Assembly: GCA_963720565.1 (NCBI GenBank)
Contig: CAVRFW010000011.1
Coordinates: 1 to 51,253, forward strand
Source: Candidatus Bathyarchaeota archaeon
GTDB taxonomy: Archaea > Thermoproteota > Bathyarchaeia > Bathyarchaeales > Bathycorpusculaceae
Direction: 5' to 3'
DNA length: 51,253 bases
Below the pieces are notes generated by a model that was given only the letters and a program-made list of their open reading frames with translations, did not search any database and was not told the origin of the DNA. A program made the translations under genes and the position numbers. This document shows positions 1 to 6,367 of this stretch, in pieces (positions within the stretch are counted from its first letter, which is position 1; each line of letters opens with the position of its first letter).

Positions 1-408
1 GACCTATTGAAAATCTTCATAAAAACCAAGAAACTCACCGCCAACAGCCACATCTACAACGGAAGTTCAGACAACCTCTCAACCAATTACCGCCATTACC
101 GAAACCGAATAGCCGATGAATTCAACATGCCCGAACTCAAACAAATATGCCTATACGACTTCCGCAGATTCAAAGCTTCAGATGTTTACCACAGAACAAA
201 AAGCGTACTTAGAGTAAAGGAAATCTTAGGTCACAGCGACCCAACACTAAAAACGACGCTCAAATACATCAGCCTATTCGATGAAGACACTAGCACATGG
301 GAGCCAATCGTATGCGAAACCGAAGATGAAATCAAGCAAGCCATCCGAGATGATTGCATCCTCGTATGCCAAGCAAACGGAAAGACATTTTTTAAGAAGC
401 CAGCATAA
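1..408 (+). CDS. Tyrosine recombinase/integrase, C-terminal part (runs off the window edge)
   Basis: Frame is open from base 1. YDFRRF (variant of the HxLRH box), ILGH and TTLKY (catalytic Tyr) occur in the order expected for tyrosine recombinases. Confidence 0.85.
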   Translation, partial: DLLKIFIKTKKLTANSHIYNGSSDNLSTNYRHYRNRIADEFNMPELKQICLYDFRRFKASDVYHRTKSVLRVKEILGHSDPTLKTTLKYISLFDEDTSTWEPIVCETEDEIKQAIRDDCILVCQANGKTFFKKPA

Positions 409-449
409 GAGATTACTTCAGGGATAACCTTTTGCGGAGTTATAGGTAA

Positions 450-1868
450 TTGGTGGTTCAAAAATATCTTGAAATTTTGAAGGATTACTTTGGCAATGCA
501 TATGCTATTGCCAAGAGATGCGACTTCAATAGAGAAAAATACGAACCACTGGTAAGAAGAGTTTACACGAAAGAATTGCGATATTCAATCTTAGAGACAC
601 TTGCCTATGAGTTGACTAAGCTTGACTGGAAAAAACAAGAAAGTGAAGCAAAAGAAGCTGACGGATTAAAAGTTCACTATGTTGGAGCAGAATATAGTTA
701 TCGAAAACCTTTTGGACATACCTCAGAATTTATTCGCAAAACTGGTCTATATGCCGACAAGGTAGTTGTCGAAGACCAACTACTGAATCGTTTGCTTGCT
801 TGGGATAGACTACGAGCCAATACCAATGTAGTATTCAACTTTGTTATAGACCACGCAATCGATTTCTTAACACTTGAGCCACTGATTATTTCAGAGTCGG
901 ATGAAGGGTTATGCCAATTTGCACCTGCAAGCCAATGGTGCCTAGAAAATAATGGTTTGCAGGACAAAGTAATGGAACTCGTGTTTGATTCGGGAACTTT
1001 GTATGCATCTCAACTTTTTGGTAAACATTTTTCCTCAATGGACGAGGTGCGCTTGTTCATTTCAAAGATAAACAGTCACGAAGAATTCTTCAAGTTAATG
1101 GTAAATAAAGAAGGTTTCGTTACCCAAGATGGTGACGAAATTAACTCTCAATGGATGACGGAATTTGTGCAGCCGTTCGAAACCACAATTACACCTGATT
1201 TGCTTTATGAGACATTAATAACTGGAATTCATGGTGGCAGAATTAATGACTTGGTTTATGATGGTCTACTTGGGACAATTCCAGTCACTGACCTAAGAGC
1301 TTCTTGGAACTCAATGAACTGGCTGATAAAAAACGACAATGATAGGCTATCTAAACAAGCAAGCACCATGGCTATCTCAAAAGAAGCAATGGTGATTAGT
1401 ACTCTTCAGCAAGATAAACTGCGTTGGTTAGGTAATGTCCCAATAAACAAGTTATGTCAACTAAGGGAAAGAGGAGAACTCTCTGACCTAAGAAGGCTAA
1501 TCAATGAAGAAATTGTCAGTATTGAGCAAGCATCTGATGAAGAATTTTTTGAAGTAGCTAAGCAGGTAAACTATAACATTAACAATGCACTGAAAAAACA
1601 TACCGCTCAAATAAGTGACTTAAGGGAAATCTACAGAGAAAAATATGGTCTTGATATTAAGTATTATATTGTCTCTGGAGCTATCGCCATAACCTCGGCA
1701 GTTTTCCAACCAATTGCTTCTGCGACTGGAATCATAGCAACTCTCTCAGGTATAGTTCCTTCAACTTTCAAAACGTTAACAGACTACTTCGAAGAAAGGT
1801 CTCGCCTAAAGGAATTGCAGAAGAAGCCAGTTGCATTACTCTTTGAAGCAAGAAACCGCACAAAGTGA
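450..1868 (+). CDS. Hypothetical protein, AT-rich, with a C-terminal hydrophobic hairpin
   Basis: 472-aa ORF right after the integrase; hydrophobic stretch YYIVSGAIAITSAVFQPIASATGIIATLSGIVP near the C terminus. Confidence 0.75.
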   Translation: MVVQKYLEILKDYFGNAYAIAKRCDFNREKYEPLVRRVYTKELRYSILETLAYELTKLDWKKQESEAKEADGLKVHYVGAEYSYRKPFGHTSEFIRKTGLYADKVVVEDQLLNRLLAWDRLRANTNVVFNFVIDHAIDFLTLEPLIISESDEGLCQFAPASQWCLENNGLQDKVMELVFDSGTLYASQLFGKHFSSMDEVRLFISKINSHEEFFKLMVNKEGFVTQDGDEINSQWMTEFVQPFETTITPDLLYETLITGIHGGRINDLVYDGLLGTIPVTDLRASWNSMNWLIKNDNDRLSKQASTMAISKEAMVISTLQQDKLRWLGNVPINKLCQLRERGELSDLRRLINEEIVSIEQASDEEFFEVAKQVNYNINNALKKHTAQISDLREIYREKYGLDIKYYIVSGAIAITSAVFQPIASATGIIATLSGIVPSTFKTLTDYFEERSRLKELQKKPVALLFEARNRTK

Positions 1869-1996
1869 AATGCTGAAATGCTGTTTTCCTGGTATCCACG
1901 CTTTAGTCGTCAAGTACTTTTCAAAGTGCCGCGAGGATGAAAGTGAAGAGTCAACCGCACTACACCTTAAATTCCCTATAGTATTGTAGTCATCAC

Positions 1997-2024
1997 GCTC
2001 GGCGTCGCCTTCGCTCCGCCTCGC
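1997..2024 (-). repeat. Tandem-GA hairpin repeat, copy 1
   Basis: Minus strand reads GC-GA-GGCG-GA-GC-GAAG-GC-GA-CGCC-GA-GC. Confidence 0.8.
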
Positions 2025-2109
2025 ACTATTGACGCTGTACAAACTGTTTTATAAACTCAGAACTAATACCAGTTATCATAATGCTTGTAAATTGAAAGGA
2101 AGAGGAAAC

Positions 2110-2715
2110 ATGATGGGAGAAAATGAGTCAGAAAACGGTCACAACGGTTGGAAAGCATTCTTGAAAAAACATTGGGGAATCACCGCTGTATTTGTAGTAG
2201 GCGCTGTTTTGGCATTGGTTGGTTCGATTTTAGTTTTTCTATGGTTTGCGGAAGACTCTCAATCGATAACTATGGTACCAATGACTTTGGGTTTATGGAC
2301 AATTGGACATGTCGTCACCTTCATCTTACATCTAATTTTCTGGGAACTTGTACTAATCGGAATTCCAGTAGGCATAGCTGCAATAGGTGGGTGGCAATGG
2401 TGGAAAAGGCTGCCTGATGAAGAAAAGAAGACATATCATTTCTTCAGAAGTAGTTCACGAACAACTGGCGGCGGCGGAGGAGTATCGATACTTTTCTTTA
2501 TTGCTTTCTGCATCAAGGTTTTCATTGATGGAAACTGGGATGTCGCTATCGCCTCTTGGACTTTGAACTACGTTGTAGAATCTATGATTTCGATACTAAT
2601 CTGGGTAGCAATAATCTTTGGAATTCCTGCAGCCATAGGTGTTATCTGGTGGATAAGCTATGGGATGAAAAAGAAACCAGCGAACGAATCAAATCAGACT
2701 GCGATTCCAGCATAA
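2110..2715 (+). CDS. Multi-pass membrane protein of unknown function
   Basis: About 4 hydrophobic segments; ATG at 2110 preceded by GAGGA. Confidence 0.8.
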   Translation: MMGENESENGHNGWKAFLKKHWGITAVFVVGAVLALVGSILVFLWFAEDSQSITMVPMTLGLWTIGHVVTFILHLIFWELVLIGIPVGIAAIGGWQWWKRLPDEEKKTYHFFRSSSRTTGGGGGVSILFFIAFCIKVFIDGNWDVAIASWTLNYVVESMISILIWVAIIFGIPAAIGVIWWISYGMKKKPANESNQTAIPA

Positions 2716-2776
2716 AATAGAAAAAACGAACTGTTCAAAAACCGCAAATAACCCTTCTTTCTTTAACTTCCAAAGC

Positions 2777-2818
2777 TCTCAGCGTCGCTTGTGCTTCCGC
2801 CTCGCACGTTCCAGACGA
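2777..2818 (-). repeat. Tandem-GA hairpin repeat, copy 2
   Basis: Plus strand tctcagcgtcgcttgtgcttccgcctcgcacgttccagacga; same scaffold as copies 1 and 3. Confidence 0.8.
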
Positions 2819-2886
2819 CGCGAAAGCCAGACGAAGCGGACCCTACGATAAGTCGAAAAAACGATAGCGAGATAGCTCTTTGAATG

Positions 2887-2991
2887 CTATCCTTTGCATC
2901 CTCTAACGTGTTTGTTAAACCGTTCCACATCGTAGAAAGTCATACTACAACGCAGACACTTATGAGCAACGCTTTCTCTAGTTTCTCCCAT
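2887..2991 (-). CDS. 34-aa C2HC zinc-finger microprotein (not in ORF track)
   Basis: Hand translation MGETRESVAHKCLRCSMTFYDVERFNKHVRGCKG (CxxC-x3-F-x8-H-x3-C); GAGGA about 10 nt upstream of the ATG. Confidence 0.6.
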   Translation of the reverse strand: MGETRESVAHKCLRCSMTFYDVERFNKHVRGCKG

Positions 2992-3152
2992 TTCTAAATT
3001 TCCTCTTGAAACAAACTGCGCGCGCTACCTACTGCACAAGCAACTGTTTTTGCTCGTTTGTACTTAAAGCGTTTTCTTAACTCTGAAATCCGTAGGTGCG
3101 CTCGAAAGCTTAAATCTAAATTGGATTTAACTGAGATAAAGGATGAGATTTC

Positions 3153-3362
3153 ATGAATGATGATGTCTTGGTGGCGGTGACTGTTAGCCGAGACAAAGGG
3201 GAAATAGTGTACAAGGTTGATTGCTCAAGTAACCTAGCAAGTGAAGAACTCGAATATTACCTCAAAGAAGTAATCGAAGGTATCTGCAAATGGAAACCAA
3301 TTGTTTGCGAAGAAGCAGTGCAAAGCTTCAAAGGAACAGTTAGAAAAAGAAAAACAAAGTAA
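3153..3362 (+). CDS. Small hypothetical protein
   Basis: 69-aa ORF with an AT-rich promoter-like upstream region (GCTTAAAT); divergent from the Zn-finger microprotein. Confidence 0.55.
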   Translation: MNDDVLVAVTVSRDKGEIVYKVDCSSNLASEELEYYLKEVIEGICKWKPIVCEEAVQSFKGTVRKRKTK

Positions 3363-3413
3363 TCCCATATTCAGAAATATCCTCAAGGCACAACAGTAGT
3401 CGTTCGAGCTAAG

Positions 3414-3454
3414 TTTCGGTGTCGCTTGCGCTCCGCCTCGAACGTTCCAGACGA
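3414..3454 (-). repeat. Tandem-GA hairpin repeat, copy 3
   Basis: Plus strand tttcggtgtcgcttgcgctccgcctcgaacgttccagacga; the minus-strand loop is GCAA. Confidence 0.8.
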
Positions 3455-3538
3455 AAACGTCTAACCCGAGCGAAATGTTGAGATTTCATTTGCTTCGTAA
3501 ATTGTAGGCAGTGATAGATTCAGCGCTCGGATGATACA

Positions 3539-4952
3539 CTATTTCTTCCTTGACATCCTGTCACATCTTGGGCAACGCCTCTTCTTTAGAAGGACCCCCG
3601 AAGTAATTATGCAGTTCGAACAAAGCGTTACCCCACAATCCCTGCAATCCACTGAATGGTTTTTGCCATACTCCCGCTTACAAATGGGACAAGTTCTCAC
3701 ACAGGTGTAACATAGAATTTGTTTGCAGATTGGACAAGTCTTGTCCAGATGTACCTTATGAAAAACCCCTTGACATGATGAGCACAAAACCGTTTCAGAA
3801 GGACACAGCCATTTGTTGCAATCTGGACATTGCCATGCCTTAGTCTTAGGTATCGACTTACCACAATCCTCACAAATAGCTCCATTTATGTGGAAACTGC
3901 TTCTTATTATTCCTCCAGAAGAAGCAAGAAGGACCTTTTCAAAACTCTTATCCTTGAAGGCATACTTGAAATGCCAAATCGGGACCAGCAGCAAGTTCTT
4001 GGAAAGTATTGTAATTGCTCTGTTAGACGGCAAATAAGATTGATACTTTTCGCCTTCATATTTATCGTTATAAGAGATTTTTCGCCGATTCTTTTCTTTG
4101 ATGTAATTTATCGCCAATTCCTCTGCCTTGTAATTAGTTACCTTGACTTCCCATTCTCGATTCTCAACGTTATACTTCTCAGAAGAGTCAATTACTACCT
4201 CCTTTAAGAGGTTCAATATTTTTCAAGTCCCTCATTACAATTTCTGACGTGCGGTCTGTATTCTCATGGAAGTTTAACACTTCGCCACTGCTTGCATCGA
4301 TTACCACTGTCCCTCTATCCTCAACAACAGTTTGTTGGTACCATGGCAATCGAACATTTTCCAAGAGAGAAAAGCGTATTTTGTAGTATGGATTAATAAT
4401 TAGTTTTGCAGACGTTATCTCCAATATCTTCGCATTGCTAATTTCAGGAAGAATTGCTTTCTCATATGGCATAATGGGTAATATGTCTTTGAGTGTTGAT
4501 TGTGTCGGTCGCACGTTTTCACTTTTAAATCCTATCCATAACCTCATAAAATCCTTGATTATCGGTTCAACCTCTTCATTCTCAGCTATTGTGAAGTTAT
4601 TGGTTTGTTTGTTGAGACCCGTGTAGGTGAAATTCACTGCACCAGTAACAGCGTATTTGTCATCAACAACGTATATTTTTGAGTGAACCGCCTCTTTTCG
4701 AACGAAGTGGACATCGAAGTTTGTAGTTTGAGATAGTTGGGAGAGGTAACTGTAGGTGTCAGCATTGTAAGTGTCATCACTTGTTACAATTCGAACTTCA
4801 ATACCTCTCCTCGAAAGGTCGTATAGTCTCTCAGCGTACGCTTTCGAAATCCAAGGGCTGCACACCCAAGCTGACCTCTTTGCATAGAAGACTGGTTCTA
4901 CATACTTCCATGCCTAGCTCATTCATGGTCCGCATTGATGTTTCAACAATCA
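3539..4952 (-). CDS. PLD-family (HKD) nuclease-like domain fused to a multi-CxxC zinc-finger region; split by apparent frameshifts
   Basis: CSPWIS, HSKIYVVDD and TGAVNFT motifs in 4188-4865. One-base shift near 4205 (IEPLK/EVVIDS) joins it to the Cys-rich ORF 3539-4216. The PLD frame extends upstream (WKYVEPVFYAKRSAWVCSPW) to a second break near 4912. Confidence 0.7.
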
Positions 4953-5111
4953 TTTACGTCATCTTCAGATTTAATAGTTTGGCAAATAAACGCCCAACTC
5001 TGAGCCAATATTCTAAGCAGCCAGAGCGCGCGTAGACAGTATACCCAGAGGTAGGCTAATGATGAAAAAAACGCCTTGGACGCCTTTTACCCGCGTGATT
5101 CTTACGCAAGG

Positions 5112-5558
5112 TTACTTTGATAGGAAATAGCGCCAAGGAACAGCAATCAGGTCCCCTATTATCCAGAAAACAAACAGCATAGTTATCTCATATCCCCACG
5201 GCTGTACTGAACCAGAGGCAAGCACTGGAGCGAAAACTGCAACAATCCAAACGATTTTTCCTGTTGCCTGCAACAGCAAAGACGCAGCAAACTTTAAAGG
5301 TGAACGCAGACCCAGCAAACCAACAACGCCGAGCGCAACCATGTAACTGTAGGCATAACCTGGTGACCACATCGGGTCTAGATTTGGAACACCCATAAGC
5401 GATGACATCGTAGCTGGTGAGACAAGGTAAACTATACCTAAACCCATCGCCCCTACAATGTTGACTACATACATGAACCTCAGCCAGTTTGGATGAAAAT
5501 CCACTTTTGCAGACTCATTTGTCAATTCTTTCACCTCCTTTCTCCCCAAGACAAGCAA
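5112..5558 (-). CDS. Four-helix membrane protein of unknown function
   Basis: 148-aa ORF with 4 hydrophobic segments; start uncertain. Confidence 0.75.
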   Translation of the reverse strand: MLVLGRKEVKELTNESAKVDFHPNWLRFMYVVNIVGAMGLGIVYLVSPATMSSLMGVPNLDPMWSPGYAYSYMVALGVVGLLGLRSPLKFAASLLLQATGKIVWIVAVFAPVLASGSVQPWGYEITMLFVFWIIGDLIAVPWRYFLSK

Positions 5559-5762
5559 AAGACTGCTTTCGAACCAAGTGTTATTTAATTTTTGGGGTCA
5601 CTTGTTACGTCTCGCGCGCGCCAAGCCAATATTTTGAACATCGCGAGCGCTGATTAATGCCAAACTCGACCTAATCACATTTGCAATTGAATTTCCTCGC
5701 CTTTCTCTAAATCTTCCTCACAAACGAAACCAAGCACGACAGAAACCTGCGCTCTAAACAAG

Positions 5763-5996
5763 CTATTGAAGAATTGACCAAAAAGTAACACGCTCAAGAT
5801 AACCAGAACCGTCCTTACATTCGAACATGCCCACATTATAGACGCACATTAAATCATCACCGATTTTGACTGCCTGAAAGAAAATAGCATAAGGAATAAC
5901 AAACAAGCCATAACGCGCAATGAACTTGGTGCAAACCTTATCCAGCCTAATTTTGTTCCATTCGCGCTCAATTCTGCGTCTACGTTGACGATTCAT
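5763..5996 (-). CDS. Small hypothetical protein downstream of the Rep remnant
   Basis: MNRQRRRRIEREW...; ATG a few nt after the Rep-remnant stop and preceded by GGGAGG. Confidence 0.5.
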   Translation of the reverse strand: MNRQRRRRIEREWNKIRLDKVCTKFIARYGLFVIPYAIFFQAVKIGDDLMCVYNVGMFECKDGSGYLERVTFWSILQ

Positions 5997-6004
5997 TGCT
6001 ACCG

Positions 6005-6304
6005 CTAACCTCCCTCGAATCTCCTGCTGACAACAACTTCCCAAAGCGGCTCGACATCATCACCAAACATGTTTACTGTCTCACCACGTCGAGAAATCGA
6101 CAGCTCAGAGAAAGCACCCAAGTACCGAACACGGACTAAGTCGCACGAACAGTAAGGACACTGATGATTTATGCCAACATCTTTTCCGTTAATCAGCTTC
6201 AACTTCCTGTAGGAACAAACGCCAAACCAAGTTGCCGCATGAGACTTCTTAGCGCCACGACGAACAGAACAATGGTTCAGTTGGTACCAACAAGCTCCGC
6301 CGAC
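6005..6304 (-). pseudogene. C-terminal remnant of an archaeal rolling-circle (HUH-type) replication initiator
   Basis: Extending ORF 6005-6202 upstream in frame gives VGGACWYQLNHCSVRRGAKKSHAATWFGVCSYRKLK...CPYC, the YQLxH/WFG/CPxC pattern I recall from archaeal MGE Rep proteins. No start codon or HUH motif. Confidence 0.65.
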
Positions 6305-6367
6305 AGCGCGCGCTGCACGTGACCAAGAAAGAAAAAAGGGTTTAGGAGGTGGATTTTCCGTTTCTTT

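Follow-up and report, generated by a model that had tools for sequence, protein, structure and literature searches.

The window analysed here, the whole stretch of 51,253 nucleotides (nt) at positions 1 to 51,253 of contig CAVRFW010000011.1 (assembly GCA_963720565.1, Candidatus Bathyarchaeota archaeon, Bathycorpusculaceae), begins with an island in which three short hairpin repeats built on GA/GA steps are interspersed with cargo genes downstream of an integrase gene. These repeats are likely copies of one hairpin that belongs, to judge from sequence comparison, to the conserved non-coding region of a mobile element encoding both an integrase and a putative HUH-type replication initiator (Rep). 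The chances are about even that the hairpin is a strand-specific structure of the replication origin region, most likely a single-strand origin, and that the extra copies mark places where cargo was stitched in. An earlier inspection of the same letters (the sequence-only reading) had offered cassette-boundary recombination sites, single-strand origins of a rolling-circle element left by serial integration, or small structured RNAs, and the second of these options proved the best fit. It stands in so far as the element has a Rep-like HUH gene, the hairpin follows the rep operon and its stable form is on the rep-sense strand.

In a full-text literature search (supplements were outside its scope) no paper was found on the present element, Rep family or hairpin. 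A term search of the available text of a survey of Bathyarchaeia viruses gave no mention of rolling circles, HUH proteins or hairpins (PMC10848311).

The hairpin repeats and their distribution

Three co-oriented repeats had been claimed and all were recovered, at 1997-2024, 2777-2818 and 3414-3454. The repeat is a 28-base hairpin in which, on the minus strand of copy 1, Watson-Crick blocks are separated by two symmetric GA/GA steps, exactly as first drawn: GC GA GGCG GA GC [GAAG] GC GA CGCC GA GC. The differing minus-strand loops (GAAG in copy 1, ACAA in copy 2, GCAA in copy 3) were likewise seen again, as was the extra sequence common to copies 2 and 3, ACGTTCCAGACGA, at 2806-2818 and 3442-3454, referred to below as the tail. 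Copy 2 departs from this design by a single bulged base, a G.T pair and an outer base left unpaired; copy 3 does so by a C.A mismatch within its middle block, and its outer end is weak. Copies 2 and 3 form one family in a repeat search (96% identity over 23 nt), and a 22-nt pattern with two copies in the window found no match in 100 shuffles; a chance origin of the repeats is excluded. The two arms are also direct repeats of one another (10 of 12 positions), and the right (R) arm and tail together make a small imperfect palindrome around AACGTT.

The predicted RNA fold of copy 1 is more stable on the minus strand (-20.5 kcal/mol, z -2.1) than on the plus strand (-12.7), and the same holds for the predicted DNA fold (-7.4 and -5.1). 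Only copy 1 has a clean predicted fold; copies 2 and 3 show competing pairings and z-scores that are not significant.

Throughout the 2.09 Mb genome, regular-expression and profile scans returned only the three window sites (E 1.3e-14, 1.2e-10 and 2.7e-6). The motif is not scattered genome-wide; it is tied to genes for integrase and Rep, and the order of genes around it varies. The pattern that the sequence-only reading had named as refuting it was thus not seen. Among 332 family genomes, a 23-base pattern allowing up to three mismatches gave 42 matches, spread over 24 genomes and 8 of 70 genera, against one match for the reversed control. In a class-wide sample of 298 genomes outside the family the 4 matches, all with three mismatches, were equalled by 4 control matches and are unconvincing. 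An exact-pattern scan, which is no measure of the hairpin's range, found at least 119 stretches; by flanking sequence and GC content the real element is present in 16 among the matches listed, all of low GC and including the Bathyarchaeia, and the rest of the matches listed are GC-rich bacteria.

An alignment of 46 copies shows nearly unchanging arms and a variable loop, which is mostly GCAA or GAAA on the minus strand. Most copies carry the tail, (C/A)ACGTTCCAGACGA, and in many the conservation extends beyond it into another stretch, M1 (plus-strand sequence GCAAG(A)GCCAAACG). The loci were collected as a set of 36 (35 and the window) with up to 8 kb fetched per side. Twelve of the 36 lie less than 2.5 kb from a contig end; repeats and mobile DNA are often found near contig ends. 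Arrays of 2-5 copies, 330-790 bp apart with one or two open reading frames (ORFs) between them, occur at 15 of the 36 loci, one relative having four to five copies in its array. Among loci with two or more copies (E < 1e-3) all copies are co-oriented except for one pair: locus L071 (G351:C20) is the only one with two copies in inverted, facing orientation, at 2525-2551 and 5196-5222, 2.6 kb apart.

Metagenome comparisons were made with assembled contigs. Contigs from a wetland sample match exactly 3411-3454/5 and differ in their flanks on both sides, and the summed contig depth of the 45-nt unit 3411-3455 (507 and 1125 in two runs of that one sample) is far above that of its surroundings. Because of this depth and the many different flanks, the unit of hairpin and tail is considered common in that wetland community.

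As a separate observation, a conserved stretch of about 35 nt (TTTTCTCAAGAT..CAGTATATCTCAAGTTAAG) with TATA-like words inside it lies immediately before the hairpin in about six copies (loci L052, L057, L058, L064, L065 and L068); in L062 it stands alone, directly after the integrase stop codon.

The Rep-like protein and its partner gene

A gene for a protein of about 350 amino acids (aa), rep, lies downstream and on the opposite strand in 8 of the 36 hairpin loci, and an integrase gene is present in all eight. The protein has 135 relatives in the protein collection, hypothetical wherever they are named and none with a precomputed Pfam domain. The query protein itself matched 0 Pfam families, its profile found no match among Protein Data Bank (PDB) sequences, neither Rep nor the product of its partner gene c6 matched PHROGs, and no relatives of Rep were found in viral contigs.

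Three features are invariant in 34 aligned Reps: an HxH motif (H195, H197), the tyrosine of YQLNH (Y260) and an EH pair. The AlphaFold (AF2) model of Rep is confident, with a pLDDT of 87. In the VIA-wide rows of a structure search independent of Foldseek, HUH nucleases took 7 of the 8 best places at Z 4-5, including MVM NS1 (5.0), SIRV1 ORF119 (4.7), RepB of pMV158 (4.6 and 4.5), AAV5 Rep (4.5), Vientovirus Rep (4.4, two entries) and a Helitron transposase (4.1). Language-model (Atlas) neighbours of Rep include clusters with Rep_1 and with the IS91-type zinc domain Zn_Tnp_IS91. From the motifs and the weak fold match we infer that rep probably encodes an HUH rolling-circle initiator. The right-hand ORFs of loci without rep were considered as alternative initiators and rejected, as they proved to be cargo (PLDc_2, DUF559, RDD, HAD and others).

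The partner gene c6 encodes a small basic protein of about 95 aa right after rep in many loci (rep loci L225-L241); it has no family match in Pfam or PHROGs.

A conserved module between converging genes

In a second genus, where hairpins of the window type are almost missing, integrase and rep genes converge in 14 of 15 loci, 1-5 kb apart, and in metagenomes the integrase gene converges on rep in 33 of 80 rep loci. M1 is situated 310-365 nt after the rep stop codon, just past c6, with the hairpin about 30 nt further on. M1 occupies that place, followed by the hairpin at the same distance, in 9 of 30 rep loci of the family, and M1 plus a hairpin are present in 9 of the 14 integrase-rep intervals of the second genus.

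Two hairpin types were distinguished. The second has a 5-bp stem, CCCGC-GAA-GCGGG, and reads GGAGCGA-CCCGC-GAA-GCGGG-AGCGAAGC on the rep-sense strand; its variants have loops GAAC or GCAA, and one has a GCGC stem. Common to both types are the flanking words GGAGCG and AGCGA and an apex GC-G(N)AA-GC, found on the rep-sense strand only, which is the minus strand of the window. Two unrelated stems with one apex at the same place are the only evolutionary support for the fold, and the alignment between the types was made by eye. Loci L252 and L253 encode near-identical Reps (branches of 0.06 and 0.02) beside different hairpin types. A link of hairpin type to the Rep or the integrase tree was examined and discarded, as the types are mixed in both (16 and 15 rows).

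The window can be related to this arrangement through metagenome contigs, some of which join the window hairpin, or hairpin, tail and M1-like stretch, to position ~5685 just downstream of c6; the joints 2025>5685 and 3459>5687 skip the cargo stretch 3539-5558. The low-side contig joint 2818>3430 could be an artefact of the repeats. In six loci rep is whole or nearly so (two of these have it split into two frames), and each has one complete hairpin; all 15 loci with two or more copies (E < 1e-3) are without an intact rep. This association of arrays with a missing or broken rep is only suggestive because the loci are related to one another.

Evidence for and against an origin function

The fixed place after the rep operon beside M1, the strand asymmetry and the exchange between near-identical Reps point to a rolling-circle origin region. 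The element would replicate by rolling circle, and the hairpin, whose folding is predicted, would act as single-stranded DNA on the displaced rep-sense strand, where it would most likely be the lagging-strand (single-strand) origin read by the host, beside M1. In the available text of PMC5714925, single-strand origins are described as relying on host enzymes only.

Another possibility is that the hairpin is Rep's own nick or termination site, either the double-strand origin or a terminator copy, cut at the hairpin foot; initiation at one copy and termination at another would then move cargo, as in capture by IS91/ISCR elements or Helitrons. Cassette homology does start at the hairpin's 3' foot (CCTCG/CAC) in two independent pairs, arrays occur only where rep is missing or broken, as would be expected if an active Rep resolves repeated origins, and the Atlas neighbours of Rep include IS91-type zinc domains. 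Rolling-circle transposases that miss their termination sites also carry neighbouring DNA along, according to the part of PMC5714925 that deals with end signals. Against this, the swap of hairpins between near-identical Reps fits an exchangeable module read by the host better than a Rep-specific nick hairpin, the loop, which many Reps nick, is the most variable part, and M1 is more conserved and adjoins rep. A nick hairpin is accordingly given a slim probability, and M1 would be the better candidate for the site nicked or bound by Rep.

A function as RNA has also to be weighed, either as the minus-strand 3'-end or terminator hairpin of the rep-c6 transcript between converging operons or as a small structured RNA. 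Tandem G.A pairs, and loops of GNRA type (GCAA, GAAA) with a closing C-G pair, are well-established motifs of RNA; the minus-strand RNA fold of copy 1 given above is favourable, and in the simplest relatives the hairpin lies at the expected meeting point of integrase-side and rep-side transcripts. However, Rfam 15 gave no match at gathering threshold in the window, and of five matches at E 3-9.4 within 1-6000 none is at a repeat, leaving the repeats without a match at E <= 10. There is no T run 3' of the hairpin on either strand, the conservation of the arms across genera goes far beyond what a terminator needs, and the window copies lie 2.5-4 kb from the rep remnant, antisense to cargo genes. 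With neither an Rfam family nor covariation within the window type, an RNA element of either kind, the small structured RNA of the sequence-only reading included, is given a slim probability.

A single-strand origin has, in turn, a number of observations to contend with. Neither a nick site nor single-stranded DNA nor a circular form was found in the assembled contigs, which cannot show these. Known single-strand origins tend to be longer and to lie on the upstream side of the nick site. Rep has weak structural matches (Z at most 5), a Foldseek search of the model against PDB gave nothing at E <= 0.001, and Pfam Rep_1 (PF01446) was matched below the cut-off in 7 of 34 homologues (E up to 1, best 1.7e-4). 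Only 8 of the 36 hairpin loci have rep within the fetched DNA, compared with 22 that have an integrase, and the copies without rep are as well conserved as the others. The window hairpin type is present at only 2 of 30 rep loci of the family (1.5 kb flanks), rep is found in 89 of 332 family genomes (20 genera) and the window type in 24, and distant rep loci from metagenomes mostly lack both M1 and the window hairpin, with clear cases of them in 5 of 62.

Of the same bearing is the absence of covariation within the window type, for which 44 distinct sequences and 8 Watson-Crick pairs were evaluated. Paired cells amount to 87.5%, a value equalled or bettered by 456 of 500 shuffles; one pair shows a two-sided change, and the covariation score was reached by 461 of 500 shuffles. 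One-sided changes give wobbles on either strand, so the alignment shows conservation of sequence and not of pairing, and evolutionary change does not prove that this type folds.

The integrase and its attachment sites

A tyrosine recombinase gene is located upstream of the hairpin, on the same strand, in the 22 loci mentioned, including the window. These integrases are nearest to archaeal XerA (75-88 bits, equivalog cut-off 220). The integron integrase model TIGR02249, whose cut-off is 265 bits, gives 50-63 bits and matches in two pieces, and IntI4 from PDB aligns to residues 138-193 only. By these sequence measures the integrase is Xer-like and does not belong to the IntI family, which is marked by an extra domain around patch III. 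Most of the ORFs that separate integrase and hairpin are confined to a single locus.

In seven loci the integrase gene begins 50-100 nt past the 3' end of the RNase P RNA gene, which was identified by Rfam RF00373 at L056:4919-5232 (187.8 bits). Fragments of the last 23-66 nt of this gene recur to the right in L046, L051 and contig C13 of the window's own genome, and in L046 the hairpin lies inside the element so bounded. This suggests the RNase P RNA gene as a preferred integration target, with attachment repeats that look like fragments of its 3' end and not like the hairpin. Since the attachment repeats derive from this gene, the integrase would already have an ordinary role. In 19 loci the hairpin region shares no direct repeat of at least 13 nt with the DNA on the left of the integrase, and no conserved site was seen by eye just past the integrase stop codon.

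The RNase P RNA 3' end forms the left border of integrase elements in L056, L039, L046, L049, L059, L062, L064 and L058. Its 23-66 nt fragments are also scattered in several genomes of another genus, where contigs often break at them.

In addition, a tRNA-Val(CAC) gene followed by a conserved ORF of about 130 aa with a zinc ribbon (c5) is found left of the integrase or hairpin cassette in L055, L060, L063, L066 and L070, and this region may be a second integration target. A tRNA-derived attachment site was rejected as an explanation of the hairpin: no tRNA gene was found within the window, and the tRNA-Val of the relatives' left flank has nothing in common with the hairpin.

The own-genome region C13:97375-103400 contains an RNase P RNA gene (recognised by DNA likeness to the Rfam-confirmed gene of L056), then an integrase gene with an internal deletion and a cargo gene. 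The last ~30 nt of the integrase gene occur a second time after the cargo gene, at 99008-99037, and a 33-nt repeat of the RNase P RNA 3' end is placed at 103368-103400. On sequence grounds this region appears to be a second decayed element of the same family, without a hairpin.

Recombination breakpoints and the movement of cargo

Cargo of the window recurs in other genera, and its homology breaks in or near the module. A locus in another genus matches positions 2022-2819 with 83% identity along 801 nt; homology begins at the last bases of hairpin 1 (CGCAC) and stops in the tail of hairpin 2, and the left neighbour of the counterpart is a partial tail and M1, with no hairpin. The 69-aa gene c48 has a homologue in another genus with a degenerate hairpin before it and a full one after it, and a third cassette starts right after a hairpin in two loci. 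Truncated copies have their ends in the loop, the right arm, the 3' foot or the tail; further breakpoints fall between tail and M1 and after M1, and in the window tail and M1 are separated by cargo. The breaks in homology are scattered over about 90 nt, and this region is therefore a hot spot of recombination with no one point of crossover.

Homologues of c66 in one genome and of c48 in two genomes of the window's genus have no hairpin adjoining, which argues against the hairpin as a gene's own 3' signal.

These patterns bear on an integron-like alternative, in which the adjacent Xer-like recombinase would insert and excise units of ORF plus hairpin at the hairpin (with its tail). The site would be used in folded, single-stranded form, as attC is, or as a duplex of 28 bp, a size like that of dif. 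Several features agree with it: the co-oriented arrays in 15 of 36 loci, the integrase upstream on the same strand in 22, the mostly locus-specific genes between integrase and hairpin, the kinship of XerA with integron integrases and the palindrome of R arm and tail. Moreover, two window cassettes recur in other genera with other neighbours, their homology starting right after one hairpin and ending with the next.

The cassette-boundary site of the sequence-only reading thus retains the beginning or end of homology in or beside the hairpin; it is weakened by breakpoints spread over ~90 nt, whereas a tyrosine recombinase should cut at one place, by an integrase that is Xer-like and far below the integron model in two pieces, and by an attachment sequence that is the RNase P RNA 3' end. 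Nor does the hairpin have attC end boxes or the integrase gene a conserved site after it; the integrase is already served by the RNase P RNA repeats, with tRNA-Val on the left flank of other loci, and most loci have a single copy, with a fixed place relative to rep in the related genus. A cassette site of this kind is unlikely, yet it is the main rival of the single-strand origin and keeps real weight. There is likewise only a small chance that the hairpin with its tail is the cassette joint of an archaeal gene-capture system without an integron integrase, in which the Xer-like integrase or the HUH Rep would act on the folded strand and units of ORF plus hairpin would come to lie between the genes of these two enzymes, giving arrays such as the three copies of the window and the four to five of a relative.

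With a single-strand origin, the extra copies in the window would be leftovers of illegitimate or Rep-linked recombination at origin copies, which stitched cargo in; alternatively they may have arisen by serial acquisition followed by deletion. The window element itself would now be decayed and, because its rep is truncated, immobile as a replicon.

Relation to known systems

Origins of rolling-circle plasmids of the pC194/pUB110 (Rep_1) and pT181/pMV158 types similarly have an HUH-type initiator gene beside a conserved non-coding region, a hairpin stable on one strand only and an exchangeable hairpin module next to a more conserved module on the initiator side. The present system differs from them by a Rep that is sub-threshold to Rep_1 and has zinc ribbons, by a hairpin of 28 nt with two tandem G.A steps downstream of rep, where bacterial single-strand origins are far longer than 28 nt, and by an element that also integrates, in an uncultured archaeal host; the function of the present hairpin is putative.

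A close parallel in archaea is the provirus SNJ2 (betapleolipovirus), as portrayed in the available text of PMC13107129. It is an integrated element with the integrase and rolling-circle initiator genes at opposite ends and, just downstream of the rep operon, a conserved hairpin-forming element that is the origin and is preceded by a second short conserved element. Its Rep is the Rep_trans-like Rep-Arvir with a wHTH domain, in contrast to the HUH motifs and HUH-like predicted fold of the present Rep, its hairpin has no sequence likeness to those described here, and it has one origin, with no array between cargo genes.

Integrons resemble the island in their co-oriented imperfect hairpins after short ORFs beside a tyrosine recombinase gene, in cargo that differs between genomes and in the proposed strand-specific folding. 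Archaeal integrons known to date carry canonical IntI and attC, as set out in the available text of PMC9668308. In the island, too, short ORFs stand in tandem with a co-oriented site after each, and cargo varies from genome to genome. The attC consensus consists of an inverse core RYYYAAC and a core GTTRRRY at the base of an imperfect hairpin, with a length of 57-141 nt. The present site is without R''/R' boxes: its stem base is GC..GC, and the only GTT 3' of the hairpin is that of GTTCCAG, which does not fit RRR. It measures 28-45 nt, it is conserved in its sequence and not in shape alone, the integrase gene is oriented toward the array and breakpoints are not at one position. As far as sequence comparison goes, the element is not a member of the integron family as defined.

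IS91/ISCR elements and Helitrons share with it an HUH enzyme and a short GC-rich hairpin as end signal, which when skipped leads to the pick-up of neighbouring genes. Unlike these, the present element comes with an integrase and attachment repeats of its own, transposon ends and target sites were not identified in it, and its Rep has one invariant tyrosine column in the motif region, not a demonstrated transposase pair. Clustered regularly interspaced short palindromic repeats (CRISPR) were dismissed, the spacing of 637-781 bp with intervening ORFs being unsuitable.

Hirao and colleagues reportedly described the extra-stable DNA mini-hairpins d(GCGAAGC)/d(GCGAAAGC). The apex of both present types on the rep-sense strand is similarly GC-GAA-GC, GC-GAAA-GC or GC-GCAA-GC, and sheared G.A pairs are part of both designs; here, by contrast, the apex sits on a longer stem with two more G.A steps (window type) or on a 5-bp GC stem (second type). 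The GA-step hairpin may represent a compact strand-asymmetric DNA signal.

Bathyarchaeia are abundant and uncultured, and there are no genetic tools for them. The comparison defines a family of small integrating elements of this group, with a Xer-like integrase, an unnamed HUH Rep-like protein, a partner gene and a non-coding module, and offers candidates for a replicon, with the RNase P RNA 3' end as a candidate place of integration. Were the cassette reading true, the arrays would be a second, independent way of building gene-cassette arrays.

Layout of the island

The island extends from 1 to ~6400, and same-genus genomes without it align only from ~6400 onward. Its order is integrase, cargo, hairpin 1, cargo, integrase-end remnant, hairpin 2, cargo and hairpin 3, followed by 2.1 kb of minus-strand cargo, an M1 remnant, c6, a rep remnant and the chromosome (Table 1).

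Table 1. Features of the island at the left end of the window (positions in the window; aa, amino acids).
Feature	Position	Strand	Evidence or remark
Xer-like tyrosine recombinase (integrase) gene, 3' part, cut by contig start	1-408	+	NCBIfam XerA_Arch E 4e-5
Cargo ORF, 472 aa, no assignable family	450-1868	+	97% similar copy in wetland metagenome contigs
Hairpin copy 1	1997-2024	minus	Perfect GA-step geometry, loop GAAG, without the usual tail; profile positions 3-34
Cargo ORF, membrane protein (cluster c66)	2110-2715	+	83% identical locus in another genus
Remnant resembling integrase-gene 3' end with stop codon, same family	2731-2760	+	By-eye match (e.g. L064)
Hairpin copy 2 with tail ACGTTCCAGACGA	hairpin 2777-2805, tail 2806-2818	minus	Loop ACAA; profile positions 2-46, E 2.9e-11
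Degenerate M1-like stretch after copy 2	2819-2835	+	One mismatch to M1 core at 2824; weak
34-aa zinc-finger-like ORF, C-x2-C ... H-x3-C	2887-2991	minus	Pfam Phage_zn_bind_3 E 0.0075, below cut-off
Cargo ORF, 69 aa (cluster c48)	3153-3362	+	Homologue in another genus, 76% over 180 nt
Hairpin copy 3 with tail	hairpin 3414-3441, tail 3442-3454	minus	Loop GCAA; E 2.9e-15
Three cargo ORFs: zinc-ribbon-rich protein, PLD-like nuclease, membrane protein	3539-5558	minus	Pfam PLDc_2 E 2.5e-16
Zinc-ribbon-rich protein	3539-4216	minus	
PLD-like nuclease	4188-4865	minus	
Possible M1 remnant	5612-5634	+	Read from the sequence beside relatives' M1; weak, unscored
Small gene c6	5763-6044	minus	Cluster c6; encoded directly 3' of rep in many rep loci
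HUH Rep-like gene remnant, last third	6008-6367	minus	34-homologue profile positions 243-339, E 7.3e-25

The truncated integrase at the contig start clusters with full-length proteins of 280-430 aa, for which Pfam Phage_integrase gives E values of 1e-16 to 2e-20, and the integrase-end remnant is present in the homologous locus L063 too. A genome-wide profile search places the rep remnant at 6029-6310 (E 1.2e-23). The wetland metagenome homology that covers the region of the first cargo ORF stops at 2024.

The zinc-finger-like ORF sits between hairpins 2 and 3 and was too short for the list of ORFs, which began at 40 aa. Of the cargo beside hairpins, a PLD-like nuclease occurs in both the window and L046, the window also has the zinc-ribbon-rich protein, and L048 has a DUF559 endonuclease-like protein, a content that looks defence-like from its sequence.

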